Origin: a virus
Lineage: Duplodnaviria; Heunggongvirae; Uroviricota; Caudoviricetes
IMG/VR virus record: IMGVR_UViG_2563366885_000004
Length of the DNA stretch: 15,471 nt
Direction: 5' to 3' (one strand)
A program made the position numbers and the translations under genes. Under the pieces are notes generated by a model. That model had not been told where the DNA came from and made no database searches. It saw only the letters and a list, made by a program, of their open reading frames with translations. How positions within the stretch are numbered: the stretch's first letter is position 1; each line of letters starts with the position of its first letter. This document shows, piece after piece, positions 1 to 15,471 of the stretch.

Positions 1-390
1 TTACTCTTTTTTCTCCGTATCTGCATCGGGTTCATCAGCAAATAGCTTGCCCTGCATCCGATCCAGTTCTTCTTTTCTTACCCGCTTAACCACGCTGTAG
101 ACCCACTGAAGCGAAACACCAAATTTGCGGGCCAGTTCGTGGTGGTTGCGTCCGTTAAACTCCCTGAAGATTTCCCGGTCGCGCTGACTGACCTTCCATA
201 CCATGCCCATCGGGAAATAAACGTTTTGCCCGCCCCAGACCTGCATCATTCGGTTCGCGACGGCCTGACCAATCTGGTCGGCAACTTCGGGCTCAATATC
301 AATAATCTCGCGAACGGTCTCAGAGGTATGCTGTGCCAGTTCCACCAGGAGTTCCGGCCCCTTACTTCGAAACTGATTCAGGTCGCTCAT
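1..390 (-). CDS. mor: Mor/C-family middle-operon transcriptional activator
   Basis: 129 aa, the same length as Mu Mor. C-terminal HTH pattern FNGRN..EL...GVS...VY shared with Mu Mor (from memory). Last gene of the leftward early operon; GGGAG RBS 6 nt upstream of ATG at 390. Confidence 0.75.
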   Translation of the reverse strand: MSDLNQFRSKGPELLVELAQHTSETVREIIDIEPEVADQIGQAVANRMMQVWGGQNVYFPMGMVWKVSQRDREIFREFNGRNHHELARKFGVSLQWVYSVVKRVRKEELDRMQGKLFADEPDADTEKKE

Positions 391-814
391 GTTTGACTCC
401 CGCAGCTCTGCGCTGCCACTTCTTCAGTTTCTCAATAACACTGCTTGCCTGTTCAGTACTGAGCCAGCGCAGGGCGCTGATGCCCGTTTCCCGCTTGATC
501 CACCCCGCTAATGCATTTTCTGAACGGTCACGAACAATGCCGGCAGCAGCCATTTCAAGCCATAGCGCACGAATTTTCCTGGACTGCGGATGGTTATCCA
601 GCGGTAAACCGGAGCTGGCTTTTCTGGCTGGTTTAACGCGAAAGCCTTTCTTTTTCATGGATTCCAGCACGCAGTTTAGTTGTGTGGTATCCATTCCTTT
701 GGTTGAGGCTTTACCGGTCAGCCCCTGTAACATCTGGCGGTAGGTGTCTTCATCCATACCCAGTTCATTACGGGCAATATGAATGAGCTGGATAAGACGT
801 TGTTTAGTCATCAT
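362..814 (-). CDS. gemA: GemA-like early protein (Mu gp16 family)
   Basis: Sits immediately upstream of mor, as in Mu. Track ORF runs to 853, but the ATG at 814 has an AAGGAG RBS with 5-nt spacer, so 814 is the preferred start. 3' end overlaps the mor start by 29 nt. Confidence 0.55.
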   Translation of the reverse strand: MMTKQRLIQLIHIARNELGMDEDTYRQMLQGLTGKASTKGMDTTQLNCVLESMKKKGFRVKPARKASSGLPLDNHPQSRKIRALWLEMAAAGIVRDRSENALAGWIKRETGISALRWLSTEQASSVIEKLKKWQRRAAGVKHERPESVSK

Positions 815-1019
815 CGTTGCTCCTTTTACCTGCGCCACCGATATAATCGACATATAAAGGAAGCGCCACAGGCCAGTACAGGAACATCACCGACCAACTA
901 ATCCAGTAGCCGGCACCACTGTAACGTGAATAAAACCCTGAACGGCGGTGCAGTTCAGCAGTACACCAACCGACAAAACAATACCAGAACAGGGCACATA
1001 CAACAGATTCAGCAGTCAT
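804..1019 (-). CDS. Small hydrophobic early protein (about 71 aa, predicted membrane protein)
   Basis: Internal ATG at 1019 of track ORF 804..1175. Trp/Tyr/Phe-rich hydrophobic sequence. Fits the operon frame chain, overlapping the upstream 76-aa gene by 11 nt. Confidence 0.35.
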   Translation of the reverse strand: MTAESVVCALFWYCFVGWCTAELHRRSGFYSRYSGAGYWISWSVMFLYWPVALPLYVDYIGGAGKRSNDDD

Positions 1020-1239
1020 TCTGAATATCCCCCCAACTGATATGAATATTACGGGCAGCAATGACAGGGTCGTTATTCCACCATGCACCTGACATGTATT
1101 TTTCAACCTGTTCGCGTCCGGCAATAACACCAATTGTGATCCCCGGCCTGACGTTCTTAAAAAAGGCGCGGGCAAAAAGGTATCTGGCAGATATTCGGCA
1201 GGCTTTTAATTTCCGGCTTTTACCTGATAGCGTAATCAT
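1009..1239 (-). CDS. Hypothetical small early protein (76 aa)
   Basis: Start codon overlaps the stop of the upstream DUF2786-like gene (ATGA overlap at 1236..1239), indicating translational coupling. Confidence 0.4.
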   Translation of the reverse strand: MITLSGKSRKLKACRISARYLFARAFFKNVRPGITIGVIAGREQVEKYMSGAWWNNDPVIAARNIHISWGDIQNDC

Positions 1240-1919
1240 CTGGCCTCCAGTTTCTGTTGTTCCTGCCCACTGACCGGGCGGTGCAGTCTGACGTTCTGCC
1301 CTTCACGAAACCCCGCATAGCGCGAGGCGTCGCCATTGCGGCTTCTTCCCGGTTTACGCGCCCTGGTGGTTTGCGTCTGCGGGTATTTATGTTCCAGCCA
1401 CTGCTGCATCAGTTCACGTTCGTCATCGGTCAAGGCGAAGGACTGTATTTCACTGATAACGGCCAGCACCCAGCCTTCAGCAAACTGGTCTCCACGGCTG
1501 GTGCGGGTGGCGGTTTTTATTCTTTTGTTCTGTGCACTGATATACTGCTGACGCGCCTTTTTCAGCTGACGGGCCAGCACTTCCCAGGTGTACGCGGCCA
1601 GTGCGGCCCGTTCCCGGTTGCCGTAGAACCCCACACCCGGATATGTGCCGGGGTGAATGATGGAGTTAACACCAAATGCCTCGCGGATGATGTTCATCAG
1701 GCCCAGCATGTAGCGCGGCGGACGGAGGCTGCCTGTCGGCCAGTAGTGACTGATGGTTTCATCAATATCACTCATGGCGATGTCGGAATGTGTGATGCCG
1801 TGAACATCCATCAGTTTACGGGCGCGGCGCAGTGCCAGAGCAGCCTCATTCGGGTTGCCGGATGCTGCCAGCGCCAGCAACTTTTTCAGTTTCTCAATGT
1901 GCTTATCCTGGTCTGTCAT
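1236..1919 (-). CDS. DUF2786-like phage protein (227 aa)
   Basis: N-terminal motif KLKKLLALAASGNPNEAALALRRARKLM resembles the DUF2786 signature as I recall it. ATGA overlap with the upstream gene at 1916..1919. Confidence 0.55.
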   Translation of the reverse strand: MTDQDKHIEKLKKLLALAASGNPNEAALALRRARKLMDVHGITHSDIAMSDIDETISHYWPTGSLRPPRYMLGLMNIIREAFGVNSIIHPGTYPGVGFYGNRERAALAAYTWEVLARQLKKARQQYISAQNKRIKTATRTSRGDQFAEGWVLAVISEIQSFALTDDERELMQQWLEHKYPQTQTTRARKPGRSRNGDASRYAGFREGQNVRLHRPVSGQEQQKLEAR

Positions 1920-2221
1920 TGTTCAGTATCTCCGGTGTACATGACGCCCAGCCGTGCGGCAAGGCGTTCCAGTTTTTTCTGTTTGTGGAAGTCAATCAGC
2001 CGGTCCATTCCCTGAAGGCGCAGCTGCTCTGTCATGATTTCCACGTCTGCCAGCTCTGCCGCGAGGTCACTTTCGCTGCCCTGTCCGTTCAGGTTGCGGG
2101 CGGCACTGGCCGCCAGTTCAGCAGCCTCTTCTGTCAGTTTCAGGGCCTGTGCATCCGGACCGAAACGCTGCAGGGCCAGACGGTAGAGGGCGGTGCGGGT
2201 GAGTTCGGTGTTCCGTGTCAT
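1916..2221 (-). CDS. Hypothetical early protein (101 aa)
   Basis: ORF in the operon chain; ATG confirmed at 2219..2221; acidic, helical-looking sequence. Confidence 0.5.
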   Translation of the reverse strand: MTRNTELTRTALYRLALQRFGPDAQALKLTEEAAELAASAARNLNGQGSESDLAAELADVEIMTEQLRLQGMDRLIDFHKQKKLERLAARLGVMYTGDTEQ

Positions 2222-2230
2222 GCCGCGCCC

Positions 2231-2503
2231 TCAGTGTTTCCGGTCGACGGTGATGTTCAGGCCGCCTTCTGCAGTGGTTTCCACCCGGTACGGCACCTCG
2301 TGCTCTGCCGTGTGGGTGAGTGTGTTCATCAGTACCTGCAGGGCAGCCGCCTTTCCGTTGGTTGCCACAATGGCCTGAGCGGCAATGCTGATTAACGCCG
2401 TCAGGACGTGCTTCACATCGGTGAGGTCGCGGCATTCACACTCGTTGACATAGTGTTCAACAAGGGTTCGGGTGCGCTGTCGTGCTTCCTGTGGGGTAAT
2501 CAT
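2231..2503 (-). CDS. Hypothetical early protein (90 aa)
   Basis: GGGAGG RBS 7 nt upstream of ATG at 2503; ATGA overlap with the upstream zinc-ribbon gene. Confidence 0.5.
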   Translation of the reverse strand: MITPQEARQRTRTLVEHYVNECECRDLTDVKHVLTALISIAAQAIVATNGKAAALQVLMNTLTHTAEHEVPYRVETTAEGGLNITVDRKH

Positions 2504-2694
2504 TGCGCGTCCTCCCTGTCAGGGCGGGAGAATTCCATGACGGGCACGTCCGCCGAAAAATGCTGGCTGCAGTACGGACAGACCAGGGTGACACGTACTG
2601 CAGGTACGTGGTACTTACCGGACATCACGGCGATGGCGCTGTGAAAACGCAGGGCTGTTATATCCCTCTCGCACTGAATACATTTAAATATCAT
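2500..2694 (-). CDS. Small zinc-ribbon protein (64 aa, CxxC ... CxxC)
   Basis: Two Cys pairs (CIQC and CPYC) in a 64-aa ORF. GAGGAG RBS upstream of ATG at 2694. Confidence 0.5.
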   Translation of the reverse strand: MIFKCIQCERDITALRFHSAIAVMSGKYHVPAVRVTLVCPYCSQHFSADVPVMEFSRPDREDAQ

Positions 2695-2791
2695 AATTTA
2701 ATTCTCCTCTGTTTCCGGCGTGCAGAAGCCCACGGCGCTGACGCCGGAATAAAAAAGAAAATGTTTTTATTAAATAATTAACGTGGTGTGT

Positions 2792-3322
2792 TTACTGCAC
2801 ATCCTGCTCAAAAGGAATTATTGAAAAATCCTCAATATCACTTTTTATGGTAATACCGGGAATATTTTTCACGGCGTCCTTTTCATTCAGGATAGCGTCT
2901 TTATTTATTTCCTCTTTTACACGAATAAAGCGCTCAAGCCCCAGACGTCTCAGTAATTCAATAACATTATCCGCCCCACGGATACTGACTGATGGCGGAC
3001 GGTTTCGTCACTGCACCTCGCCGGTGGTGAGGTTAGCGAACTTCACCTTCCCGTTGCCGGTCAGTTCATCACGGTGTGCCTCACACCATGTCTGAATACC
3101 GGACTGCAGTTCGGCCATGCGTTTTTTCAGGCTCTCGGTGAGCGGGGCATAACGTGCGGTGATATCGCCAATGGCGTCATTCATTTCTGTTTCAGCCCTG
3201 ACCAGTTCACGTTGTGCGTCACCGAGTAGTCTGATTCCCTCAATGACCTCTTCACGTGTCCCCGGCACCCAGAGTGCTGCTGCGGCCTTGATACGTTTTG
3301 CACCTTTTGTACTTTTTGCCAT
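2792..3322 (-). pseudogene. gam: Mu Gam-like host-nuclease inhibitor interrupted by one in-frame TGA at 3008..3010
   Basis: Translation of 3008..3322 closely matches the Mu Gam N-terminus (MAK..KRIKAAAA...ETEMNDAI...WCEA.RDELT). The same frame continues after the TGA (RNRPPSVSIRG ... GITIKSDIEDFSIIPFEQ) and matches the Mu Gam C-terminus to a TAA at 2792..2794. The TGA aligns with a Trp in Mu Gam as I recall it. Confidence 0.75.
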
Positions 3323-3349
3323 TTTTTATGATTTCTCCAGTTGTGCTGA

Positions 3350-3619
3350 TTACCACAAAGATTCCGGCCACACGACGCGACAGCCGTGCAGTTCGAAAAC
3401 GCCCTGACGGAAATATCCCCTGTGGTCATGTCCGGTATACAGATAACAGGCCTTTCCCTGCTCAAGCATGCGCATGCAATGCGCACTCCGGGAAACGCGG
3501 ATGACAGGTTTGTTACCCCTGATGGTGATGCTCTGTACATCCGTGTTCGTCGCCTTAAGCGCCATAATGGCTGACTGCACTTTGCTGATTTGCTGGTTGA
3601 TACCTGTGGTGGATTTCAT
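3350..3619 (-). CDS. Hypothetical early protein (89 aa) directly downstream of the B-like gene, where Mu has kil
   Basis: ORF starts 2 nt after the B-like stop. The kil analogy is by position only, not by sequence. Confidence 0.45.
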   Translation of the reverse strand: MKSTTGINQQISKVQSAIMALKATNTDVQSITIRGNKPVIRVSRSAHCMRMLEQGKACYLYTGHDHRGYFRQGVFELHGCRVVWPESLW

Positions 3620-3621
3620 TA

Positions 3622-4788
3622 TTAAACCCCTTTGACAACGTCAGCGTTGACCTGTGGAACCCCGATTTCAGCGGCCAGATTCATGGCGGCTATTACCAGG
3701 TTACTGACGGCCAGCGGATACAGCAGGCTGACCATATTTTTACGGTGACTTCCCGGATTGCTCAGGCGGGCACGTATGGCATCCACTGCACCGGCGTCCA
3801 TAATGTCCGTCAGCTGTTTACCGGCCCGTTGCAGTTTGAACGTCAGAAATTCTTCAAGGTTATTGTCCAGAGGCAGAAGTTCGACCACCTCACAGCGCTG
3901 AACGACTTCACGGACTTCCATATTGCGTTCAGACAGTTTTGTCGCCAGTTCCGGCTGGCCAATCAGCACGATGGACAGCAGTTTTTTGAAACCGGACTCC
4001 AGCTCAAAAAAGCGTTTGAGGTGTTTCAGTGTCGGAATGGGCAGACTGTGGGCCTCCTCAATCACCAGAACGTGGCTGAACCCCGCCTGGCTGCTGTCTT
4101 TCAGGACGCGATGCAACTGGCGAAAACGGGCGTCCTGACTGCGTCTGATGCTTTCCAGTGGTGCGATGGTACTGATAATGGCTTCGGCAATAGCTGCTGC
4201 CTTCAGGGTTTTCCCTTTCACATCGTTGTCTTCCATAGCGATGATGTATGGCTCGATAACAATTACCGGCGCATTCTCGCGGTTGATACGTTCAGTCAGG
4301 TCGCGGCGCAGCGTGGATTTACCCGCACCGGACTCACCGATGACGGCCATAAACCCACCATGACGGGCTGTCTGGTACAGCGCCTCACGCACGTAGCGAA
4401 TGTCCGGGGTGGTGAACACATCATCAGAACCCTGCATGGCTTCGTCGGCGAACGGGTCACGGAAAAGACCAAACGCTTTTTTGGTTGCTGGAAATAACAC
4501 CTGTTTTTTGAGTAACATATTCTCTTCCTCACTGAGGCTCGTTTTATCTGTGGTACCCGCTGTACGGGGCGTGGCCGCGCCCTGTACAGCATCAAAACTC
4601 TTCGTTGTATCAATCCCCTGACTTTCCAGCCAGGACGCAAGACGCCGGCGCACTTCTCCGGGGCTGGTGCGGGGCCACGCGTTATGATTCACAATCTGGG
4701 CCAGCGTGGCCTCAGAAACATCGACAGCTCTCGCCACCACCGCCTGTGGAATACGGGCCTCTTTCAGTTGCTGCTTCAGTACCAGCAT
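3622..4788 (-). CDS. Transposition/replication AAA+ ATPase (MuB-like, ExeA/TniB-like)
   Basis: N-terminal HTH region, Walker A VIGESGAGKST, Walker B-like VLVIEEAH and a VLIGQPEL motif. Lies directly downstream of the transposase. Start placed at ATG 4788 (GAGGAGG RBS) rather than the track start at 4827. Confidence 0.8.
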   Translation of the reverse strand: MLVLKQQLKEARIPQAVVARAVDVSEATLAQIVNHNAWPRTSPGEVRRRLASWLESQGIDTTKSFDAVQGAATPRTAGTTDKTSLSEEENMLLKKQVLFPATKKAFGLFRDPFADEAMQGSDDVFTTPDIRYVREALYQTARHGGFMAVIGESGAGKSTLRRDLTERINRENAPVIVIEPYIIAMEDNDVKGKTLKAAAIAEAIISTIAPLESIRRSQDARFRQLHRVLKDSSQAGFSHVLVIEEAHSLPIPTLKHLKRFFELESGFKKLLSIVLIGQPELATKLSERNMEVREVVQRCEVVELLPLDNNLEEFLTFKLQRAGKQLTDIMDAGAVDAIRARLSNPGSHRKNMVSLLYPLAVSNLVIAAMNLAAEIGVPQVNADVVKGV

Positions 4789-4798
4789 GTTTCCCTCC

Positions 4799-6568
4799 TC
4801 AGTTGCCGTTAACAATGCTGATAACACTGCTGCGGGCCGGTGTGGTCAGCGTGGCCATGACTTCATCCAGTGCGGCTTCCGGTACGCCGTCCGGGTACTG
4901 TGCCGTTAACTGGCGGTAATGTTCCGGCGTCCAGGTAAGGCCGTCGGCGCTGAACTTATCGCGCAGGGCTTTCGCGGCCTCCACATGAGTCATGGGACGT
5001 TGTTCAGTGCGCGGCCCGCGTACGTCAGAGGCCTGACCACGCTTCGGCATATAGGCCGGAAGTGTGGTGTCGTCGATATGTTTATACGGGTCAAGCCGCC
5101 CGCCGAACGGCAGCGCCTTCGCCTTGCGTGCGGCGGCTGCATCTGCGGCGTTGTCTGTACCGGTAACCAGCGCTTCGGTTTCTTTTGCCGCCATCTGTGC
5201 CGGGGTTTCCGGCAGGGCTTTGTAACTTTCGCCAAATACCGCCGCGCCTTCAGCAAAGCCAAACTCGTTCTTTCTGACCTCTTCGACCAGGAAGAACGTC
5301 TCGTGGCCGTCCTCACCGGTCAGAACCACCTGTGCCACATCGCTGCGCCATGGGTTACGGGTAATCATCAGTTTTTCACCAACCAGTACGCCCGGTACCG
5401 TTGATACGTCAAATTCAGTGCCCCGGAACGAGACACGAAGTTTTGGCGTGACTTTGCGGAGTTCTGGTGCCGCCACAGCCAGTTCACGACATACCTCAAC
5501 GGGAGGCGCTTTTTTCAGCTGCTCAGCAGTAATCTTCAGCCAGATATCCGTGCGGGTTTTACCGTGGCGGCTGTGAACAGCCGTGGCGTTAAAGTGGCTG
5601 CGCCATTTCGCGGCCAGCGCGTTGAGTTCTTCCAGACTGTGAACCGGCCGGAACTTCAGACCCGGCTCCAGCTTGCGTTCGATAATGTCCCGCGCCTTTT
5701 CCACCTGTCCGGTGGCGCGGGCGTTATGCGGCTTGTGCGCTATCAGGTCGATGCCCAGTGAGCGGCACATGTTTTTCGTCATACCCGCGGTGTTTGCCGA
5801 GCCGGGGTCGAGATAGAGTATTTTCGGCACGCCGTGCAGCACGTCTGCGCCGCCACGCTCCTGCATGGCGTTGATAAGCACAGAACACAGGTTCTCACCG
5901 GATTCCGCGCCCGTCACATACTCAACGTAAATCCAGCCGCTGGCATGGTCGGTAATCTCGTAACTCCACACGCGGTCACTGGCGATACGGGCAAGGTTAG
6001 CGGGCTTGTTCTTGTAGAACTTCGCGCTGTCCATCACCTGCAGCCCTTTATGTCCATTGCTCAGGTAGTAAAGCGTGCAGAGTGAGGCGTCAATCTGCCA
6101 GACATGATTGGGATGCAGACTGGCCACTTCGGTATGTGGTGCAGGGGCATCCAGTTGTTCCGGGTGCAGGCCATAGTTACGCAGAGCACGGCTGATGGCA
6201 TCTTCAGACAACGGGAAAAACTCACCGGTGGTTTCATCTGTTCTGCCTGCGGTGATAAAGCCGTTAGCCCGCAGGGTTTCCACTGCATCTGCGATGGAAT
6301 AGAGACGCTTACCGTTCTTGCGGGTGGCCTCACGCAGTGTGGCAGATATCAGCGCGGCTTCGTCGCGGGTCAGGGCGCTGCGCCCGGCATCGGCGCGTTT
6401 TTTGCGTTTATCAGTCACAGAGACCTCCTTCAGCCTGCGCAGCAGAGTGGCGCGGGACATGCCAAGTTCAGCACAGGCAGCGTCGTATATTGCACCGCGT
6501 TTACCATGCCCCGCGTCACGTGCCGCGCGGGCGACATAAACCAGTCGTTCAGTCAGGGCAGCATTCAT
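4799..6568 (-). CDS. DDE transposase (retroviral-integrase superfamily; resembles Tn552/TnsB/BcepMu TnpA type more than MuA)
   Basis: 589 aa with N-terminal HTH and candidate catalytic residues in HVWQIDAS, YLDPGSANT and QVEKARDIIE. GGAGG RBS upstream of ATG at 6568. Followed by the AAA+ ATPase partner gene. Confidence 0.85.
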   Translation of the reverse strand: MNAALTERLVYVARAARDAGHGKRGAIYDAACAELGMSRATLLRRLKEVSVTDKRKKRADAGRSALTRDEAALISATLREATRKNGKRLYSIADAVETLRANGFITAGRTDETTGEFFPLSEDAISRALRNYGLHPEQLDAPAPHTEVASLHPNHVWQIDASLCTLYYLSNGHKGLQVMDSAKFYKNKPANLARIASDRVWSYEITDHASGWIYVEYVTGAESGENLCSVLINAMQERGGADVLHGVPKILYLDPGSANTAGMTKNMCRSLGIDLIAHKPHNARATGQVEKARDIIERKLEPGLKFRPVHSLEELNALAAKWRSHFNATAVHSRHGKTRTDIWLKITAEQLKKAPPVEVCRELAVAAPELRKVTPKLRVSFRGTEFDVSTVPGVLVGEKLMITRNPWRSDVAQVVLTGEDGHETFFLVEEVRKNEFGFAEGAAVFGESYKALPETPAQMAAKETEALVTGTDNAADAAAARKAKALPFGGRLDPYKHIDDTTLPAYMPKRGQASDVRGPRTEQRPMTHVEAAKALRDKFSADGLTWTPEHYRQLTAQYPDGVPEAALDEVMATLTTPARSSVISIVNGN

Positions 6569-6571
6569 TGG

Positions 6572-7483
6572 TTATGCCTCCAGCCCGTTAATCTGTGGCG
6601 TCGGCTCAGTCAGCCATGAAGGCGCTGCATTGCCTGTTGGCTCGTCCGGCAGGTCAAATGTGGAGCGCAGGCTACGCGCTGTGCTTTCCAGTTGACAGAC
6701 CAGGCCTGCCATGAAGTCTCTGGGAGTATCAATCATGTTTTCAGCACAATATGCGCACAGTGTCTCAAAAGCGCTGGACAGTCGGACGGCGATAGCAGAT
6801 TCCGCCTCAACCGCTAATGCTGTCACTTCCGCCCGCAGCTTCTTAACCTCCTCATCAGGCTCAGGCGGCTGAATACGGGATTTCTTTTCCAGTCTGGTAG
6901 AGAGAGAATCAATTTTTTCATTTTTATCGGCGAGTACGCGCTGTTGTGCTGCGTTGGTTTCGCGCGCTTCGCGCAGGGCCTGGCGAAGTTCGCGTACTGA
7001 CATGCGATCAACGTCGTCAAGCGTCAGGCCGGCAACAGTGCCACCATCAGCCAGTTCGGCAAGGTTTTCATCGTCTTCCGTCATTAACTCGAATAATTTG
7101 GCTTTTCCTAAAAGCGCAAACGTCTGCGCTTTTGACTCAAGTTGTGGTGATAAATATTTTATTGATGCCTGCATCATTACCTGTGCAGTACGCTTTGACA
7201 TTGATAATTCAGACTCGACAATATTTATGAAATCACCATATGGTTCATTTTCTTTCAGTATTATCAGTCGTTTACCTGCCTCTAGCATGGCCTCAGCACT
7301 TTGTGCCATATAAAAGCGTGCTTCGTGAACAATGCGATCACGTTCATAAGGCAGACCATCGCCGAACTGCTGCATGATCTCCACGCGGTGTTGTGCCATG
7401 GTATTAAGACTGATGTTGAGATCATCAGACAGCGGCACCTCAGCATTCAGATCAGTGGACATTGGTGATTTGGTACGTCCCAT
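6572..7483 (-). CDS. Hypothetical coiled-coil protein (303 aa) between the ner-like gene and the transposase
   Basis: AAGGAG RBS 6 nt upstream of ATG at 7483. Central region is Glu/Lys/Arg/Ala-rich, consistent with coiled coil. No family recognised. Confidence 0.55.
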   Translation of the reverse strand: MGRTKSPMSTDLNAEVPLSDDLNISLNTMAQHRVEIMQQFGDGLPYERDRIVHEARFYMAQSAEAMLEAGKRLIILKENEPYGDFINIVESELSMSKRTAQVMMQASIKYLSPQLESKAQTFALLGKAKLFELMTEDDENLAELADGGTVAGLTLDDVDRMSVRELRQALREARETNAAQQRVLADKNEKIDSLSTRLEKKSRIQPPEPDEEVKKLRAEVTALAVEAESAIAVRLSSAFETLCAYCAENMIDTPRDFMAGLVCQLESTARSLRSTFDLPDEPTGNAAPSWLTEPTPQINGLEA

Positions 7484-7493
7484 TGATTACTCC

Positions 7494-7802
7494 TTATAAA
7501 CGACTACCTGAAATGACACGTTGGTTGATTTCGTTAATACGATCCTGCGCTCGTGCCATCTCGTTACTGTGAGCCATGGCGATCTGCAGTAACTGGATGC
7601 CCGGTGCAAAACGTCCATTCTCCAGTTTCAGGGCCAGCCCTTCTTCAATGAGGGTGTTGAGTGCCCGATTAATGTTTGCTGGTGACTCGTGCAGTGCTGC
7701 CGCCAGTTCACCGTTGGAGATACCGTTCAGAGCGTGGCCACGTAACGCCTTAAGAACACGCAAAATACGGGTACCTGCGCTTGATGTATTTGGTTTATTC
7801 AT
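7494..7802 (-). CDS. Small winged-HTH protein (IclR/MarR-like DNA-binding domain only, 102 aa)
   Basis: RILRVLKALRG...ISNGELAAAL..SPANINRALNTLIEEGLA resembles an IclR-type N-terminal wHTH. ATGA overlap with the ner-like stop. Confidence 0.5.
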   Translation of the reverse strand: MNKPNTSSAGTRILRVLKALRGHALNGISNGELAAALHESPANINRALNTLIEEGLALKLENGRFAPGIQLLQIAMAHSNEMARAQDRINEINQRVISGSRL

Positions 7803-8023
7803 GACACCTCCTTAAGGATACCGGGGGTAACTTCTTTACCTATTGCAACCGATAGATCTCGCAAAATCCGATAAGTCAAACGACCACGTGGTAGTTCACT
7901 TTTACCAGCCCAGCGACTGACTGCCTGTGTGACTGTTCGTGGCTCATAGCCTGCGTTAAGCGCGAACTGGCGCAAGCTACTGCCTCGTTCAACTAGTCGT
8001 GCCCGAACTTGTTGTTTATTCAT
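7799..8023 (-). CDS. ner: Ner-like DNA-binding protein (early negative regulator)
   Basis: 74 aa (Mu Ner is 75 aa). Core SLRQFALNAGYEPRTVTQAVSRW resembles Mu Ner LSALSRQFGYAPTTLANALERHW (from memory). First gene of the early operon, divergent from the repressor. Confidence 0.7.
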   Translation of the reverse strand: MNKQQVRARLVERGSSLRQFALNAGYEPRTVTQAVSRWAGKSELPRGRLTYRILRDLSVAIGKEVTPGILKEVS

Positions 8024-8111
8024 ATGCGGATAGTTCCAGTTGGGTTATCATGTACTCAATATGAATAAATGTACTTATTCAAAATAAATAAATCAAGTGG
8101 AATTACGCAAA
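8024..8111. promoter_or_regulatory. Divergent early/repressor control region with operator-like repeats
   Basis: 88-bp AT-rich spacer between the divergent ner-like and repressor genes. Inverted repeat TGAATAA-N6-TTATTCA at 8062..8081 and direct repeats TGTACTcAAT / TGTACTtATT at 8051..8060 and 8070..8079. Leftward candidate promoter TTGATT-17-TACATT on the minus strand. Confidence 0.5.
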
Positions 8112-8528
8112 ATGAATAACAAAGATGTTAACGCTGTGCTTTCCCGGTTAATGTCACTATTCCAAGCAGAGAATGATAGTGAGTTGGCAAGAGCGCTTAA
8201 CGTCAATAGGCAGACACTTGCAAGTTGGAGGAAGCGTGATTCTGTGCCTTATGCAATTTGCATAAACATCGCAGAAGAAAAGGGGGTTTCTTTAGATTGG
8301 TTGCTAACAGGTAGAAAACAAGGTTTATCAAAAGAAGTAGACGTAACTCCGACGCAAGTGCAGTTTAGCCAAGCTGACCTTACTATGCTTGAGCTTTTAA
8401 AGCAGCTAGACCCCGAGGTTCGTAACGATCTTCTGCGAGGCGCTGCGGAAAAACAGCGAGTGATCGAGATGGAAAAACAACTGAAGGAATTATCCGCAAC
8501 GATTGAGCGGTTAAAAAATGTGGGTTAA
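8112..8528 (+). CDS. Prophage repressor, CI-type HTH without a peptidase domain
   Basis: LARALNVNRQTLASWRKRDSVPYAICINIAEEKGVSLDWLLTG matches the phage CI-repressor HTH pattern. No S24 peptidase motifs. Divergent from the early operon. Track start is GTG 8097; ATG 8112 is an alternative. Confidence 0.75.
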   Translation: MNNKDVNAVLSRLMSLFQAENDSELARALNVNRQTLASWRKRDSVPYAICINIAEEKGVSLDWLLTGRKQGLSKEVDVTPTQVQFSQADLTMLELLKQLDPEVRNDLLRGAAEKQRVIEMEKQLKELSATIERLKNVG

Positions 8529-8650
8529 TCTATTCCCAATGAGAACAATTGACAAGGTTATCAAACCTCTTCGTTATATGCGCTGATTTAAACAGTAGGA
8601 TGTGCTGTTTGCACTAACCATCTGAACTTTCCGCGTTAAGGATTAATCGT

Positions 8651-9544
8651 ATGAGTGGTGATGTGAGAAATTATCGTATTGAGTTTCATCAGCTATCGTT
8701 TAAGGCCACAGATCAGCTGGCAAATCTCGGAGATGCTTTTCAATCTGTAATTGATAAACAGAGCCCTTCCTCTTCAAACCATGAGGGTTTTACTAGAGAA
8801 ATTTGGGGGTTGAAAAAACGCGCGGATGGTTCTTTTAGTGGAGAGTTGAGAAAATTTCGCAACTCGAACATTCCGGATAAAGGTGCACCAGGGAAACAGT
8901 CTACCCCTATTCCACTTGCCAAGGATGAAGGGATCATTGAGCGCAATTTCTTTGTATTCTATCCTCGAATCAATGTTATAGGTTGGCACTATAATCATAT
9001 GGCTTGTGGTATAAGCCGTTTTAGTGCATTTCTTTCAACTATCTTTGGTTCAAAGGTTAAGCCCGCACCTTTGCTGGAAAAAGATGCAATCGCTAGGCTT
9101 ATGAGAGGAGATGTCAAAATGAAAAAAATCCAGTTGACGATTCCTCGCCCCCGTAATCCTGAGTTTTACCCTGATACTGATTTCAGTCAAAAGACACTAC
9201 AACTGCTTGGTGATGCAGGTGCCGATACAATGCAAATTGTAATGGGGATTAATACTCGCCGTGGCGATAGTGATGGTAGGCTTAAGCAGAATATAAAATT
9301 TGCTATGCAAGAGTTAGTCGAGTTTGGGGCGAAAAAGGCTGTAATTGATGTGTTCGATGCTGATGGTGTTGTCCATCCTGTGGATTTGATTGCCGAGCGT
9401 ATTTCGTCCTATCAATCGGTAGTTACTGACGCTCGTTTCCCTCCAGCCGAAACCATGTACCGTCTAATCGATACTGCGTATGCTGAAAACCGGGAGAGTA
9501 TCAATGCATATATTGGAGAAGATGAACTCGGCCCTATTGCTTAG
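8651..9544 (+). CDS. Soluble 297-aa protein, candidate RexA-like component of a repressor-linked exclusion module
   Basis: AAGGA RBS upstream of ATG at 8651, same strand as and downstream of the repressor. Segment FFVFYPRINVIGW...ISRFSAFL...RLMRGDV resembles lambda RexA FLFVEGDTIGF...LTDFL...PLMRGTT, quoted from memory and unverified. Confidence 0.45.
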   Translation: MSGDVRNYRIEFHQLSFKATDQLANLGDAFQSVIDKQSPSSSNHEGFTREIWGLKKRADGSFSGELRKFRNSNIPDKGAPGKQSTPIPLAKDEGIIERNFFVFYPRINVIGWHYNHMACGISRFSAFLSTIFGSKVKPAPLLEKDAIARLMRGDVKMKKIQLTIPRPRNPEFYPDTDFSQKTLQLLGDAGADTMQIVMGINTRRGDSDGRLKQNIKFAMQELVEFGAKKAVIDVFDADGVVHPVDLIAERISSYQSVVTDARFPPAETMYRLIDTAYAENRESINAYIGEDELGPIA

Positions 9545-9941
9545 TTTATTGATTGGATGTGGGATTGGTTTTCTCTACTGGTTCAAGTTGCCCCATATGC
9601 CAGTAGCCGCAATCCCAAACTTCATGACTACATTGTCCAGTGTCTTTGCAACGTTGTTAGGTTTTATTATTACAGCAATTGCACTACTTGCATCATTGCT
9701 TGATAAACCGTTACTTAAAAACATGCAAAAAACCGGACATTACAAGCGTCTGATGACCGATGCATTCTACACTTGCTTAGTTTTGCTAGTGTTGGTGTTG
9801 ACATGTTTGATTGGGTTGATGCTGCAAAGTAAGCATCAAGAGATTGTAGCCGCTATTCTCATTGGGCTTGTTGTTATGTCTATGTTGTGTTTATTACAAA
9901 CAGGTAGGCGATTATTCAATATAATCAAAGTGATATCATAA
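9504..9941 (+). CDS. Four-TM membrane protein (about 145 aa), candidate RexB-like effector
   Basis: Four hydrophobic segments. Start at ATG 9504 (GGGAGAG RBS) overlaps the upstream gene's 3' end, indicating coupling. TTLSSVFATLLGFIITAIALL resembles lambda RexB ATLSSYAGTMIAILIAAL, from memory. Size is close to RexB (144 aa). Confidence 0.45.
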   Translation: MHILEKMNSALLLSLLIGCGIGFLYWFKLPHMPVAAIPNFMTTLSSVFATLLGFIITAIALLASLLDKPLLKNMQKTGHYKRLMTDAFYTCLVLLVLVLTCLIGLMLQSKHQEIVAAILIGLVVMSMLCLLQTGRRLFNIIKVIS

Positions 9942-9964
9942 CAATGCACCATCAGGTGCATTGT
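9941..9964. terminator. Perfect 10-bp stem / 4-nt loop hairpin between the convergent membrane-protein and dam genes
   Basis: ACAATGCACC-atca-GGTGCATTGT begins at the stop codon of the membrane-protein gene. No strong U-tract on the plus strand; moderately T-rich tail on the minus strand. Confidence 0.4.
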
Positions 9965-9993
9965 TATGCAAGACTACTTACCTCCTTCTGAGC

Positions 9994-10761
9994 CTACTCT
10001 AAATTACTTACAATAAGTTCGCGCCGTAGTGTTCCCTTTCCTGCAAGACTGTAGTTGACCTTCACACAGTGAATGTTCAGACCGTTAAAAACCTGCCGCA
10101 TTTCCGGGATATCGTTGACCGATATAATCATCTTTCCTCTGATGCACCGGGCCAGCTCTGCCAGCCGCGAGTAGTTCCCTTCAGGAAAATCCACACCATA
10201 GCCTTCCGTACCCAGGTACGGTGGGTCGCAGTAGAACAGCGTGTGCGGACGATCATAACGCTCAATGCACTGTTGCCAGTCCATGTGTTCTATGACTGTT
10301 CTGGAAAGCCGCAGGTGTGCCGCTGACAGTTCTTCTTCAATACGCAGCAGGTTGAAGCGTGGCGGGGATGTGGTGGAGGTACCGAAGCTGTGCTCTGCCA
10401 CCTTGCCGCCAAACGCCTGCTTCTGAAGGTAGTAAAACCGTGCCGCACGCTGGATATCCGTCAGTGTTTCTTCCGGGGTGATCTGCAGCCATTTGTAGAT
10501 CTGACGGCTGACCAGCGCCCATTTGAACTGGCGGACAAATTCTTCCAGGTGATGCTTTACCACCCGGTACAGATTCACCAGTTCACCGTTGATATCATTG
10601 ATGACTTCGATCTTGCCGGGTGTCTTAAGAAAATAGAGCGCTGCTGCCCCACAAAACGGCTCCACATAACATTCATGCGCCGGAAACAGCGGCAGAATGT
10701 GTTTTGCAAGGCGGCGTTTGCCACCAATCCACGGCACGATGGGTAATGTCTGCATTTTCAT
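9994..10761 (-). CDS. dam: DNA N6-adenine methyltransferase (Dam-like, DPPY motif)
   Basis: IVPWIGGKRRL N-terminus, FCGAAALYF (motif I-like) and FYCDPPYLGTEGY (DPPY catalytic motif). Track ORF extends to 10851, but the Dam-like N-terminus begins at the Met codons at 10761/10755. Confidence 0.85.
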   Translation of the reverse strand: MKMQTLPIVPWIGGKRRLAKHILPLFPAHECYVEPFCGAAALYFLKTPGKIEVINDINGELVNLYRVVKHHLEEFVRQFKWALVSRQIYKWLQITPEETLTDIQRAARFYYLQKQAFGGKVAEHSFGTSTTSPPRFNLLRIEEELSAAHLRLSRTVIEHMDWQQCIERYDRPHTLFYCDPPYLGTEGYGVDFPEGNYSRLAELARCIRGKMIISVNDIPEMRQVFNGLNIHCVKVNYSLAGKGTLRRELIVSNLE

Positions 10762-10865
10762 AATCTGTAAGCCTTTTACAATTATTAAAAAATATGGCAG
10801 TCTGGTCAGGTCTCGCGAGACTGACTGAACCTTGGTCGGCTCACAGCGCATTCCTGTGGGGCGAT

Positions 10866-10907
10866 GACCAGCCCGGCTTTCGGGTGCCGGGCTGGTCGTT
10901 CTTTCAT
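10866..10907 (+). terminator. GC-rich hairpin followed by a T-rich tract (terminator-like) in noncoding DNA
   Basis: GACCAGCCCGG-ctttcgggtg-CCGGGCTGGTC at 10866..10897, then GTTCTTTCAT. No plus-strand gene is evident upstream, so its function is uncertain. Confidence 0.3.
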
Positions 10908-10951
10908 GATGCGGCAGGGATGGCGGGATTTCTGTTAATGTGGTTTAGGGA

Positions 10952-11167
10952 TTATCCGGGGCGATTTTCTGACCTTATCCGGTCCAGGGCATAAGTAATA
11001 CCTTCTGCAAAAACAGAAGTATCAAACTGCTTTTGTATTCCCTGAAAATGAAAAGCGGCACGACAGACACTCAGTTCTCCGCGGTATAACCGGATAATAT
11101 CTTCCAGAACATTGTTCACTGCTTCAGCACGGCGCTGATGTTCTGTTAACGTTAATCGGGGATTCAT
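10952..11167 (-). CDS. Hypothetical 71-aa protein
   Basis: Strong AAGGAG RBS with 6-nt spacer upstream of the ATG (complement of 11165..11167). No family recognised. Confidence 0.5.
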   Translation of the reverse strand: MNPRLTLTEHQRRAEAVNNVLEDIIRLYRGELSVCRAAFHFQGIQKQFDTSVFAEGITYALDRIRSENRPG

Positions 11168-11570
11168 GATGCACTCCTTAAATGATGATTTTTATGTACT
11201 CACCGGCAAAATATTCTGCCGATTACTGAACACGCATCCGGCACCTCAGGTTTTGATTTATTCTGGTTTTTTCGATATCCCGGACCAGGTTGATCACGAC
11301 CAGAAAAAGTGCCGGTGTTTTATTGATACGCTGATATGGCTTCGGGATAACAGCTATATTCGTTACTCTCAGTTGCTGGCTGTGGGAGCGGCTGATGTCG
11401 TCCTCACGGAAAAAACGCTCTGTCTGCTCAATGCCATGCCGACCTTTCTGCAGCCCCGGCCCGTACCATTTAAAGAGTCACTTCTGGATGCAGTAAAAAC
11501 CGGTGAAAATGCAGTCATCGCTGAATGCGTATCCCGGATTATGCGTTACGTGTTTAATGAACGTAAGTGA
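11166..11570 (+). CDS. Hypothetical 134-aa protein (possible degenerate receiver-like fold; speculative)
   Basis: Codon usage looks host-like (CTG, CCG, GGC third positions). Weak GGGGA RBS. Its start codon overlaps the start codon of the divergent 71-aa gene. It fills an otherwise 378-bp noncoding gap. Confidence 0.4.
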   Translation: MMHSLNDDFYVLTGKIFCRLLNTHPAPQVLIYSGFFDIPDQVDHDQKKCRCFIDTLIWLRDNSYIRYSQLLAVGAADVVLTEKTLCLLNAMPTFLQPRPVPFKESLLDAVKTGENAVIAECVSRIMRYVFNERK

Positions 11571-12274
11571 GGTTTATCCGCTGTCTGCATAATCCCGATA
11601 GCCAGTGCGAGGGGAAGTAATTCCGGGGAAACTCTTTCAAACAGCGATGCCCATTCTCCTCTCGCCATCACTCTGTCCAGCCCGCCCCCCAACTGCATTT
11701 CAGCAATCTTCCTGATTTCCCGGAACAACGCCGCTTTGATCTCTTCATGCTCAGCTTTATTTTCCGGTGTCAGAAGGTATTCGTCGAAGAACCGGGGAGG
11801 CTGGTTAATCGGGATGTGTTCCTGTTTGCCGTACTTCGGGGACGAACAACATTCTGTTGACTGACCAGTGAGTTTACGTAACTCCTTCATGAGCAGCTCC
11901 TGATCGTAAACTGTCATCAGTGCCGCAATGGTGGCATGCAGTGCATCGGGCAGTATCCAGGGTTGCCGGCCCGTGGGGCATATAACATCCAGCAGCTCAT
12001 TCGTCCGACAGATACGCTCCTCGCCGTATGACAACAGGCCCTGTCCCGTGTATTCCTCCAGCCTGATCACTGTGCCAGCCCGTGGTTTCTGCCATGTGCT
12101 CAGATCATCCCCACTCATACGGCGCTCACCGTCCACGTCTGCGGCGTCGACAATGACGCTGTTTCCGAATTCCTGTTTCACCACTTCCTCTATCCGCGCC
12201 AATATGTAACTTTTACCGCTGCCCACAGGACCGGACACGGTGACAGTGATGACCGGATTCAGTGTCTGCGTCAT
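11546..12274 (-). CDS. P-loop NTPase (Walker A GPVGSGKS) with an uncharacterised C-terminal domain, 242 aa
   Basis: AGAGGAG RBS 8 nt upstream of ATG at 12274. Walker A sits at residues 15-22 within a compact N-terminal domain. The C-terminal roughly 150 aa match no family I recognise. Confidence 0.65.
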   Translation of the reverse strand: MTQTLNPVITVTVSGPVGSGKSYILARIEEVVKQEFGNSVIVDAADVDGERRMSGDDLSTWQKPRAGTVIRLEEYTGQGLLSYGEERICRTNELLDVICPTGRQPWILPDALHATIAALMTVYDQELLMKELRKLTGQSTECCSSPKYGKQEHIPINQPPRFFDEYLLTPENKAEHEEIKAALFREIRKIAEMQLGGGLDRVMARGEWASLFERVSPELLPLALAIGIMQTADKPHLRSLNT

Positions 12275-12404
12275 ATCGTATTCTCCTCTGTGAATAATTC
12301 ATCGTTTATCCTGCACATCCCGTATCCCCGGCTCTCTTAACGCGCTTTAAAATCCTTCGCGCCCTGTATTTGTGATGCTGTCTCCACCAGATAAGGAGAC
12401 ACAC

Positions 12405-12755
12405 ATGAAAAACCTGAAAAAATTCATTCCCCCTGTTAAAAAACCTCGCCTCAGCGGCTGGCTGCTGACCTCAGTGCTGTTGCTGGGCACCATCGCTCTG
12501 GTCTCACCACAGCAGCTGCCTGTTGTGATCTACAAGCTGGCACTCATCACGCTGGCAGCAGTGCTGGGTTACTGGCTTGACCGTTCGCTCTTCCCCAAAG
12601 CCCGTCCTGGTCAGTACCTGAAACATGACGACAGGCTGATGGCTGAAGGGCGTTTCCCGGTACAGACCGGCCTTCACCTGGTGTTTTCTGCTGCGTTAAT
12701 TCGCCGTGCACTGATTGTTGCAGCGGTCTGCCTGGCTGTTGCGATGGGGCTTTAA
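12405..12755 (+). CDS. Putative holin or lysis-associated membrane protein (116 aa, about 3 TM)
   Basis: AAGGAG RBS upstream of ATG at 12405. Three hydrophobic segments. Lies immediately upstream of, and coupled to, the endolysin gene (stop 12753..12755, next ATG at 12758). Confidence 0.5.
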   Translation: MKNLKKFIPPVKKPRLSGWLLTSVLLLGTIALVSPQQLPVVIYKLALITLAAVLGYWLDRSLFPKARPGQYLKHDDRLMAEGRFPVQTGLHLVFSAALIRRALIVAAVCLAVAMGL

Positions 12756-12757
12756 TC

Positions 12758-13498
12758 ATGAACTGGCCGCAGATCACCTGGATTGTATGCATGTCCCTGA
12801 AACTGGCTTTCGAAGCCTTTCGGGTCTTCATCAGAACCGAACGCCCGTCAGTCCGCGCCGGGACCTTTCTGGTTCATATGGCATGGGTATTCTTTGTCGC
12901 AATGTTGCTCTGGTGTGGCGGCTTTTTCAGCCAGGCATGCGCAGCACAACCTCCGCAGGCTGCGCTGCAGTATCGCGATGATGTGATCCGTAATGCCCGG
13001 CTTGAATGGGGACTGTCTGCGCCGGTGGCCGATTTCGCCGCGCAACTGCATCAGGAAAGCGGCTGGCGACCTGATGCGATCTCGCCGGCTGGCGCTCAGG
13101 GACTGGCGCAGTTCATGCCTGCCACTGCCGACTGGATAAGCCAGTTGATACCGATGCTGAGCAGTCGTGAGCCGTTTAATCCGGCATGGGCTATCCGGGC
13201 GCTGGTCAGCTATGACCGCTGGCTGTGGCAGCGTGTCAGCGCCGCCAGTGACTGCGAGCGTATGGCCATGACACTGTCGGGCTATAACGGTGGTCTGGGC
13301 TGGGTACAACGGGACAGGCGGCTTGCATCACAGAAAGGTCTGGACAGCACCCGCTGGTTCGGACATGTCGCCACGGTGAATGCCGGACGCAATGCGGCCA
13401 GCTGGCGGGAGAACCGCCATTATCCGCAGCGCATCCTGCGCGAACTGGCACCGCGATATCTCACATGGGGAGGCAGCAGTTGTGTGGCATCTGGTTAA
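12758..13498 (+). CDS. Endolysin, lytic transglycosylase (SLT domain)
   Basis: Motif QESGWRPDAISPAGAQGLAQFMPATA fits the SLT catalytic Glu-Ser region. A hydrophobic segment MAWVFFVAMLLWCGGFF precedes the domain (alternative start at 12878). Confidence 0.8.
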   Translation: MNWPQITWIVCMSLKLAFEAFRVFIRTERPSVRAGTFLVHMAWVFFVAMLLWCGGFFSQACAAQPPQAALQYRDDVIRNARLEWGLSAPVADFAAQLHQESGWRPDAISPAGAQGLAQFMPATADWISQLIPMLSSREPFNPAWAIRALVSYDRWLWQRVSAASDCERMAMTLSGYNGGLGWVQRDRRLASQKGLDSTRWFGHVATVNAGRNAASWRENRHYPQRILRELAPRYLTWGGSSCVASG

Positions 13499-14132
13499 AA
13501 AGCTGCCGTGGCGCGGCATTCTGCTGGCCATTCTTATCAATGCCTTTCTGGTCGGCCTGTATGCCATGGGATACAGAAGTGGTCATGACTCTGCAAAGCG
13601 TGACGGTGATACCGCGCTCAGTCAGTTGCAGTCAGCATTTGACGCGTACAAAACGGAGCAGGCAACGCTTGAGAATGCTGCGCTGCGGGCCTGGGCCAGA
13701 CGGTATCAGGAGCAGGTGGCCGCCGGGCAGCGGGCTGAAGCCGGTTATCTTGAGCAGATTGCTCAACTGGAGAGCCGGAATAAACAACTACAGGGGCAAA
13801 TTAACGATGTCACACAGCGCTGGATTGATGAAAAAGGTAAGAGCCATCCCATTGAGTGCGTGTTTACTCGCGGTTTCGTGCGCCAGTACAACGCCGCACT
13901 CGGATATGACAACGCATCCGTCGACACCGGTCATTCAGACTCAGTTGCCGCCGCTGGCACCCGCTCTGGCACAGCGACCGGGCAACCTGAAACCACTGAC
14001 ACCCGGTTACGCGATTCGGGTGTCTCCCAGCGTGACGTTCTCGCCAACATCATCGACAACGCAGGACAATGTCGTCGCTGGCGGAACCAGATAAACGCGT
14101 TACTGGATGAACGGGAAGGATTACAGAAATGA
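13482..14132 (+). CDS. Rz-like i-spanin (type II membrane protein with coiled-coil periplasmic domain)
   Basis: GTG start at 13482 with a GGGGAGG RBS, overlapping the endolysin stop. N-terminal TM segment LPWRGILLAILINAFLVGLYAM, followed by a Gln/Ala/Glu-rich helical region. Confidence 0.6.
   Translation: MWHLVKKLPWRGILLAILINAFLVGLYAMGYRSGHDSAKRDGDTALSQLQSAFDAYKTEQATLENAALRAWARRYQEQVAAGQRAEAGYLEQIAQLESRNKQLQGQINDVTQRWIDEKGKSHPIECVFTRGFVRQYNAALGYDNASVDTGHSDSVAAAGTRSGTATGQPETTDTRLRDSGVSQRDVLANIIDNAGQCRRWRNQINALLDEREGLQK
13828..14094 (+). CDS. Rz1-like o-spanin lipoprotein embedded in the +1 frame of Rz
   Basis: MKKVRAIPLSACLLAVSC signal-like N-terminus with Cys, followed by a Pro-rich mature region (TPVIQTQLPPLAPALAQRPGNLKPLTPG). 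Lies wholly inside the Rz gene. Alternative ATG at 13807. Confidence 0.45.
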   Translation: MKKVRAIPLSACLLAVSCASTTPHSDMTTHPSTPVIQTQLPPLAPALAQRPGNLKPLTPGYAIRVSPSVTFSPTSSTTQDNVVAGGTR

Positions 14133-14455
14133 CACTGCAGGTTGAATTCTGGACGGTGGTGAGTTTTCTGCTCACCTTCATGGGGTTTGTGGGAGGGCTC
14201 GCCAAATGGTTGTTCAGTAAAACAGAAGAACGCCAGGCGGCACGATTCGCCTCCCTTGAACAGGCCCTGCAACAATCCGCCTCCAACTGGGGCGAGCTGG
14301 AAAAAGAATTTATGCGATTTAAAGCGGATTTACCGCTGAATTATGTCCGTCGAGAGGATTATATCCGTGGCCAGACAGTCATTGAGGCCAAACTGGACGC
14401 GCTTTATAACAAACTGGAAGTGGTACAGCAGTACCGCAATACCGGAGGTCAATAA
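14129..14455 (+). CDS. Late-operon membrane protein (N-terminal TM plus coiled coil; Mu gp25-position)
   Basis: ATGA overlap with the Rz stop. GGAAGGA RBS. TM segment VVSFLLTFMGFVGGLAKWLF. Confidence 0.5.
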   Translation: MTLQVEFWTVVSFLLTFMGFVGGLAKWLFSKTEERQAARFASLEQALQQSASNWGELEKEFMRFKADLPLNYVRREDYIRGQTVIEAKLDALYNKLEVVQQYRNTGGQ

Positions 14456-14766
14456 TGGTCGATATTACCCGGGTACGCCGCGAATCCCTGCGCTGGAGTC
14501 TGCTGGTTGCCCTGAACAAGACCCGCCCTTACACCGCCAGCGAGACGCTGCTGCTGGATGTGTCCCGTGCCATCTACCCGGACACCACACCGCTGGAACT
14601 GCGACGCGAACTGGATTATCTGGCTGACCGTAAAATGGTTGATCTGGAGAAAAAACCTTCTGGCGACTGGTTTGCTGACCTGACCCGCCTCGGCGTAGAC
14701 CTGGTGGAATACACCGTGGAATGTGGTCCGGGTATTGCCCGCCCGGAAAAGTACTGGAGTGAATAA
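14455..14766 (+). CDS. Late-operon protein (Mu gp26-position), 103 aa
   Basis: GGAGG RBS. TAATG overlap with the upstream stop. No family recognised. Confidence 0.5.
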   Translation: MVDITRVRRESLRWSLLVALNKTRPYTASETLLLDVSRAIYPDTTPLELRRELDYLADRKMVDLEKKPSGDWFADLTRLGVDLVEYTVECGPGIARPEKYWSE

Positions 14767-15195
14767 TGGCCAGACGCAGCACAATAGAAAAGCTGCCGGA
14801 AGATGTGCGCCGCTGGCTTGAACGGGCGCTGACTGAATCCGGCTTCAGCGGGTATAACGAGCTGGAGTCCCTGCTGCGTGAGCGGGGGTACGTCATCAGC
14901 AAATCCGCTATCCATCGCTATGGACAGAAGATTGAGCGCCGCTATGGTGCTATCCGTGCGGCAACAGAAGCGGCCCGCATGCTGACCGAAGGCGCAGCAG
15001 ACGATCAGGATGCGCGTTCGGAGGCTGTGATAGCCCTTATTCAGACCGAGCTGTTCGAGAGTATTGTCCAGTTGCAGGAGGCGGAAGAAGGCGAAGTCGA
15101 TCCTAAAGAACGCGTGGCCCTGCTGTCGAAGGTGGCGAAGAATGTGGCTACGCTGTCCCGCGCGTCCGTCAACCTCAAAAAGTTCCAGTCTGAAG

Positions 15196-15471
<276 letters not shown>

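Follow-up and report, generated by a model that had tools for sequence, protein, structure and literature searches.

In a BcepMu-like transposable prophage of E. coli, gam very probably carries a genuine, heritable TGG→TGA nonsense mutation (W105*), a presumed loss of gene function that the phage would tolerate and that is not accompanied by any programmed signal. The gene is located in a stretch of viral DNA of 15,471 nucleotides (IMG/VR record IMGVR_UViG_2563366885_000004), here called the window, which comprises the early half of the prophage. Translation would stop after 104 residues, and functional Gam, a Ku-like protein that shields ends from RecBCD, would essentially be lost. The loss would be tolerated since gam belongs to the accessory genes of the early "semi-essential" region. 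Any full-length Gam would arise solely from passive misreading of UGA-C by Trp-tRNA(Trp), with insertion of the wild-type residue and at a low level. The lesion as such is already known: the automated annotation of NCBI (PGAP) lists the identical locus, in each of the five complete genomes that carry it, as a pseudogene of a "host-nuclease inhibitor Gam family protein" with "internal stop".

The Mu-type gam frame of this prophage extends over positions 2792..3322 of the window on the minus strand and is read from 3322 to 2792. Its translation comprises 177 codons, from the ATG at 3322 to the natural TAA at 2792..2794, that is 176 sense positions of which one is now TGA: a run of 104 sense codons from the ATG (terminated ORF, 3011..3322, minus strand) is followed by the TGA, by 71 further sense codons (2795..3007, minus strand), which are in frame, identical to those of intact alleles and normally untranslated, and by the TAA. 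The TGA is codon 105 and the sole internal stop of the frame; it lies at plus-strand coordinates 3008..3010 (3010→3008 on the minus strand). The mutated base is the one at plus coordinate 3008, which is T in the window and C in the TGG alleles. Upstream of the ATG the motif GGAGA (3334..3338, minus strand), predicted from the sequence only, is likely the ribosome-binding site of gam.

The initial annotation had described the frame as Mu Gam-like on either side of a single TGA, and a Pfam scan bore this out. The N-terminal 104 amino acids match with residues 23-104 positions 1-81 of the Phage_Mu_Gam profile (PF07352) with an E value of 3.5e-19, the 71 amino acids past the stop match positions 83-148 with an E value of 3.5e-14, and the stop itself sits at profile position 82. 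Since both halves match the same profile, the match of the downstream frame is not coincidental. With the Trp restored, the protein matches the profile over its full length and scores 140.9 bits (cut-off 28.3); a solved homologue, PDB 2p2u, is matched at an E value of 4e-8. Gam from the window and Gam from phage Mu (NC_000929, Mup10) are 61% identical over the full length, and in their alignment the stop takes exactly the place of the Trp in VSWRVRPPSVSIRG, so that the TGG→TGA transition proposed for a Trp of Mu Gam is confirmed.

The Trp at the position of the stop is invariant in an alignment of 31 homologues with 55-78% identity, and alignments and allele counts agree that in every intact relative codon 105 specifies Trp. 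Among deposited phages the nearest is Escherichia phage PhiKM (PQ738613), which is classified as Bcepmuvirus; over nucleotides 1-443 of gam the sole difference between the window and PhiKM is G→A at nucleotide 315. Gam homologues are usually 172-176 amino acids long, and a homologue search revealed no other truncated form that is common. A second cluster of "104-aa" Gam proteins (P0105, 169 members) was considered as a set of further truncated alleles and was rejected, the sequence being a C-terminal contig-end fragment that contains the Trp. In the window the uninterrupted ORF of approximately 170-176 amino acids that characterizes the Phage_Mu_Gam family is broken by the TGA at codon 105; the locus therefore has to be classed as a pseudogene or nonsense allele of gam and not, as encoded, as a functional member of the family.

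How frequent the allele is was determined with 41-mers that have the variant base at their centre, so that no 28-base megablast seed can miss it. The 41-mer with TGA occurs in 5 of the 5426 complete E. coli genomes (5/618 carriers) and the 41-mer with TGG in 613, at 665 places. The five genomes with TGA are independent assemblies that originate from China, the USA, Japan, Argentina and the UK. In NCBI, ENA, JGI and Logan assemblies, 620 contigs (indexed in 998 blocks) encode the exact 104-aa product, and 173 contigs encode the exactly matching intact Gam of 176 amino acids. An exact 35-mer with TGA was absent from IMG/VR and JGI metagenome contigs, while the 35-mer with TGG gave 19 matches in IMG/VR. 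The TGA allele in gam is a derived, minority nonsense allele.

That the true sequence is TGG and the TGA an error of sequencing or assembly, as the initial annotation had allowed, has a vanishingly small probability. A single-base difference from the intact alleles is indeed the kind of change that an error could make, but five complete genomes, which come from different laboratories and countries, share the identical base, many draft genomes have it as well, the exact truncated product recurs on all of the 620 contigs mentioned above, and the change is a substitution rather than a homopolymer indel. The other proposal, a recent nonsense mutation, fared better, in that the allele differs by a single G→A from otherwise identical intact alleles and is in the minority among the carriers in complete genomes. 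Only the word "recent" needs qualification: the mutation is young relative to the phage family and yet old enough to have reached 620 contigs, at least four insertion sites and two backbones.

Over positions 1 to 15196 the window shows 100% identity with the prophages of three complete genomes and is one base off from those of two more. The genes are arranged in the order HTH regulator, DUF3102, DDE transposase, AAA ATPase, an ORF of 89 amino acids, gam, small ORFs, GemA and Mor. Thus gam lies in the early operon between the transposition genes and gemA/mor, and the order is comparable in Mu. The prophage shows the features of a BcepMu-like element, namely TG...CA ends, varied insertion sites, a DDE transposase with its ATPase, Mor and GemA, and the gene content also includes Mu-like head genes and P2-like tail genes.

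The two ends of the window are of interest for the state of this particular copy. Positions 1..3 are the stop codon of a Mor-family gene (minus strand, 1..390), approximately 160 bp inside the prophage end; the insertion site of the window's own prophage is therefore not visible. The last 275 bases (15197..15471) are the end of an IS21-family element, encoding on the minus strand the C-terminus of IstB (PF01695, E 7e-22), and match istB copies on chromosomes and plasmids of E. coli with 100% identity. At 15197 the element interrupts a DUF3486 gene (ORF 14766..15236), a head-packaging gene, which we take to be the small-terminase-like gene of Mu-like phages. The junction of prophage and IS element at 15197 was found in no complete RefSeq E. 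coli genome, so that the window must stem from a genome other than these. The copy of the prophage in the window is probably packaging-defective.

The exact ends of the prophage, TGATTAGAC...GCGCATCA (TG...CA), were defined by comparing the prophages of FDAARGOS_1258 and M22546. Target duplications of 6 bp were found at two sites, the nagE terminator (CTTCTC) and, in M22546, the interior of an M20-family hydrolase gene (GTCAGA) (L008 2439..2444 and 40684..40689; L007 2487..2492 and 40692..40697; for the empty site, L035). At the first site the prophage is inserted after nagE in the loop of the terminator hairpin, AAAAAGCGGCAGGGAT-CTTCTC-TGCCGCTTTTT; at the second, near fabR, both halves of the hydrolase gene flank the prophage of M22546. 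Four of the five complete genomes with TGA have the prophage at the nagE site, with host flanks that are identical (0 mismatches in 2850 bp); as judged from these flanks, the four nagE lysogens are one clone. In M22546 the nagE site is exactly preserved and unoccupied, and CTTCTC is present once. Of 2444 positions in its host flank there, 10 are different, and M22546 therefore belongs to another host lineage. Over 36 kb its prophage differs from that at nagE only in 3-4 isolated SNPs and in the tail-fibre cluster.

Via the 104-aa product two further junctions were found, one next to azoR/hrpA (L011) and one next to ycaL/cmk (L013). The same prophage end is thus abutted by four distinct host junctions, and prophages with TGA are present at no fewer than four chromosomal sites. 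Of the 24 long contigs with the 104-aa product that were read, 22 have the prophage at the nagE site; the abundance of the allele therefore probably reflects, for the most part, the clonal expansion of one lysogen.

Two side observations were made on these copies. In one copy at the nagE site (L014, GCA_949812115.1), in which the TGA is present, the transposase, the DUF2786 protein and nagE are split and there are 8 gaps relative to the window; the split genes are most likely indel errors of the assembly and not real decay. Beside a gene for a small serine recombinase, the tail-fibre region is arranged in opposite ways in L007 (38843..39975) and L008 (38839..39967), and PGAP reports partial tail-fibre and assembly genes there in prophages that are otherwise near-identical. 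This region looks like an invertible host-range switch of the type of the G segment of Mu.

The prophages L011 and L013 have the TGA on a PhiKM-type backbone. Between window coordinates 2400 and 6400 position 3008 is the sole difference between L013 and PhiKM, which carries TGG, and L011 differs from PhiKM only at position 3008 and at position 3533. The window is identical to L011 over 2880..5502 and diverges sharply 3' of nucleotide 443 of gam, which places a mosaic boundary inside the 3' part of gam, approximately 130 nucleotides 3' of the stop. In the adjoining 370 bp (2508..2879) there are 17 mismatches between the window and L011/L013, followed by approximately 5% divergence further on. 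The immunity regions (approximately 6700-7800 of the window) of the window and of the PhiKM-type prophages are only about 80% identical. The mosaic boundary and the divergent immunity regions are evidence of recombination among these phages.

The TGA and the TGG alleles each occur on both 3' haplotypes, which requires either recombination approximately 130 nucleotides from the stop or recurrent mutation. Recombination is favoured because an identical block of 2.6 kb is common to both backbones, and an independent identical G→A in near-identical phages is unlikely. Deamination at a Dcm site (CCWGG) was considered as a hotspot for such a recurrence and was rejected, the sequence context, GTGCAGTGGCGAAAC, being without CCWGG.

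Because prophages with TGA are found at these different sites and on both mosaic backbones, we infer that the phage kept moving after the mutation: phages with the stop appear to have since infected new hosts, transposed to new sites and probably recombined. By analogy, such continued movement fits the location of gam in the deletable "semi-essential" region of Mu. A Mu derivative from which the whole SE region, which holds gam, has been deleted still infects and lysogenises (PMC3325207), and by the same analogy gam would be dispensable also in a BcepMu-like phage.

What is left of Gam can be judged from an AlphaFold2 model of an intact homologue that is 98% identical (mean pLDDT 80.9). The model has one long helix, formed by residues 23-82, which is followed by a small sheet-and-helix domain with strands at 95-97, 101-107, 111-114, 157-160 and 164-170. 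W105 is located in the second of these strands (101-107), and three further strands and helices lie downstream. According to the model, the terminated ORF would encode a disordered N-terminus, then the long helix and, of the beta-strands of the Gam fold, the first and half of the second; the remainder of the beta-sheet domain and the motif EDFSIIPFEQ at the C-terminus are encoded by the 71 codons past the stop. The 104-aa product would thus keep the helix and lose more than half of the beta-sheet domain, from which we infer that the end-binding function is lost. A residual or a dominant-negative activity of the fragment, whose helix is said to hold a leucine zipper, is conceivable.

The initial annotation had also considered the TGA to be a read-through site giving low-level full-length Gam. 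The part of this proposal that concerns the context of the stop holds: the UGA is followed by C (position 3007..3007, minus strand; next codon CGA), and the tetranucleotide UGA-C is an inefficient terminator in bacteria (PMC5289835). In E. coli K-12 UGA is read through with an efficiency of approximately 2% at 37 °C and 4% at 25 °C, Trp-tRNATrp competing with RF2 (PMC10570021). Since UGA is misread by Trp-tRNATrp, read-through in gam would insert the wild-type residue. RF2 of K-12 is unusually weak, and with the RF2 of E. coli B-type the read-through of the native nudL UGA is no longer visible (PMC5373646); read-through of gam in natural isolates would therefore probably be lower than in K-12. 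By analogy with these cases, read-through at the gam UGA is plausible only as a passive process at a trace level. The other part of the proposal, that of a site maintained for read-through, found no such backing, as the stop is not conserved, is not followed by a stimulatory structure and gives no indication of selection.

This bears on the possibility that the stop is a functional one, leaky enough to provide, via tRNA-Trp, a useful low dose of wild-type Gam that is adequate or even advantageous and for which the allele persists. We regard it as unlikely. The documented weakness of UGA-C as a terminator (PMC5289835) speaks for it, as does the misreading of UGA by Trp-tRNATrp, which at the 2-4% observed in K-12 would restore the invariant Trp (PMC10570021); so do the 71 downstream codons, which are intact in all carriers examined, and the survival of the allele through several infection and integration events. 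Yet the stop is not conserved beyond one allele class (TGA in 5 versus TGG in 613 genomes; 0 versus 19 matches in IMG/VR), and a more efficient RF2 of the kind present in natural isolates abolished visible read-through of the nudL UGA (PMC5373646). The 88 nucleotides around and after the UGA have a predicted folding energy of -23.5 kcal/mol as compared with a mean of -24.0 for shuffled sequences (z 0.18), so neither a stimulatory nor a SECIS structure is apparent in them. An intact downstream frame is to be expected anyway in so young an allele: the downstream differences among the TGA carriers amount to only 6 nucleotides, all of which pre-exist in TGG alleles, and the intactness of the frame therefore carries no information. 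Finally, the dispensability of gam explains the persistence of the allele equally well (PMC3325207).

The fold is also of importance for the proposal that the UGA is recoded in a programmed manner, by insertion of selenocysteine or by frameshifting, or that Gam naturally ends at residue 104, to which we give practically no credence. Beyond the presence of an in-frame UGA there is nothing in its favour. After the UGA there is no SECIS-like or other significant structure, and an Rfam search of the sequence around it gave no match. The ancestral codon is that for Trp, in 613 genomes and in all homologues, the 31 aligned ones included, and what lies downstream is bona fide Gam in the same frame, which is incompatible with the view that the Gam proteins of this lineage naturally end at this point. 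Nor is there an in-frame restart codon nearby: by eye, no ATG or GTG is present past the stop until approximately codon 151. A separately translated C-terminal fragment of Gam was considered and rejected, as the ORF that starts with the overlapping GTG in CAGTGACG is short, out of frame and closed by a TAA.

In a preprint of 2025 it was reported that Mu-type Gam sensitises phages to the defence system Gabija, from which phages with point mutations in gam or with natural variants of Gam escape; in phage JBD30 Gam and GemA each license Gabija independently (PMC12407980). Loss of Gam could thus have been selected, because of a Gabija-type licensing or of toxicity for the lysogen, and the allele could have spread by positive selection and not by drift or hitch-hiking. 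We consider this very unlikely. The escape of gam mutants from Gabija (PMC12407980) could provide an advantage in some hosts, the allele has reached at least four insertion sites and two backbones, and the 104-aa product is commoner than its exact intact counterpart (620 versus 173 contigs). However, the GemA homologue is intact here, while GemA of JBD30 licenses Gabija without Gam; there is one common inactivating allele, where selection should give many kinds of lesion; with 22 of the 24 long contigs from one clone at one site, the abundance would reflect the expansion of the host clone; and no TGA matches were obtained in IMG/VR or JGI metagenomes. We also see only a slender chance that W105* is a circulating attenuated or null allele that is favoured in the face of a Gabija-type or similar defence and at the same time supplies traces of wild-type Gam by read-through of UGA-C. 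If true, it would be a natural example of a phage that tunes down an anti-RecBCD factor to evade a defence that senses it.

The preferred reading, a tolerated nonsense mutation, matters little on its own, being an ordinary lesion of an accessory phage gene, and is mildly notable only in that the phage with the lesion stayed mobile. As a natural experiment it indicates that a BcepMu-like phage that is gam-null, or nearly so, evidently still infects, transposes and recombines in wild E. coli, which supports the dispensability of Mu-type Gam in nature. For the claims on sensitisation to Gabija there is now a ready pair of TGA and TGG alleles that are otherwise identical, FDAARGOS_1258 (TGA) and PhiKM (TGG). 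For the scanning of genomes it follows that a prophage with a premature stop in one of its genes is not necessarily dead.

Among known systems the closest is Mu Gam (Mup10), the Ku-like protein that binds double-strand ends and blocks RecBCD. Gam from the window is of the same length class (176 amino acids versus 174 in Mu), its gene occupies the corresponding place in the early operon, following the genes for the transposase and the partner ATPase and preceding gemA and mor, and both proteins share the invariant motif W-R-x-R-P-P-S. Unlike in Mu, the codon for the invariant Trp is TGA, and the normal product is a fragment of 104 amino acids. The phage of the window also differs from Mu in being BcepMu-like, with an early operon that is transcribed towards the near end and with target duplications of 6 bp. 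From the intact gam of PhiKM and of the prophages in approximately 613 E. coli genomes it is distinguished by having TGA rather than TGG.

The A1 read-through protein of phage Qbeta is an example of passive UGA read-through. The gam stop resembles those of A1 and nudL in that it is a UGA in a weak context that could be decoded by Trp-tRNATrp in competition with RF2 (PMC10570021, PMC5289835). The stops of nudL and A1, however, are natural and conserved ends of ORFs that give rise to extended proteins, whereas the stop in gam is recent, premature, located inside a conserved domain and not conserved in relatives, and its read-through product is hypothetical. With the accessory-gene pseudogenes of prophages that are flagged by PGAP the locus has in common the label "internal stop". 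In contrast to the typical decay in a stranded, immobile prophage, the lesion in gam rides on phages that evidently still transposed into new genomes.
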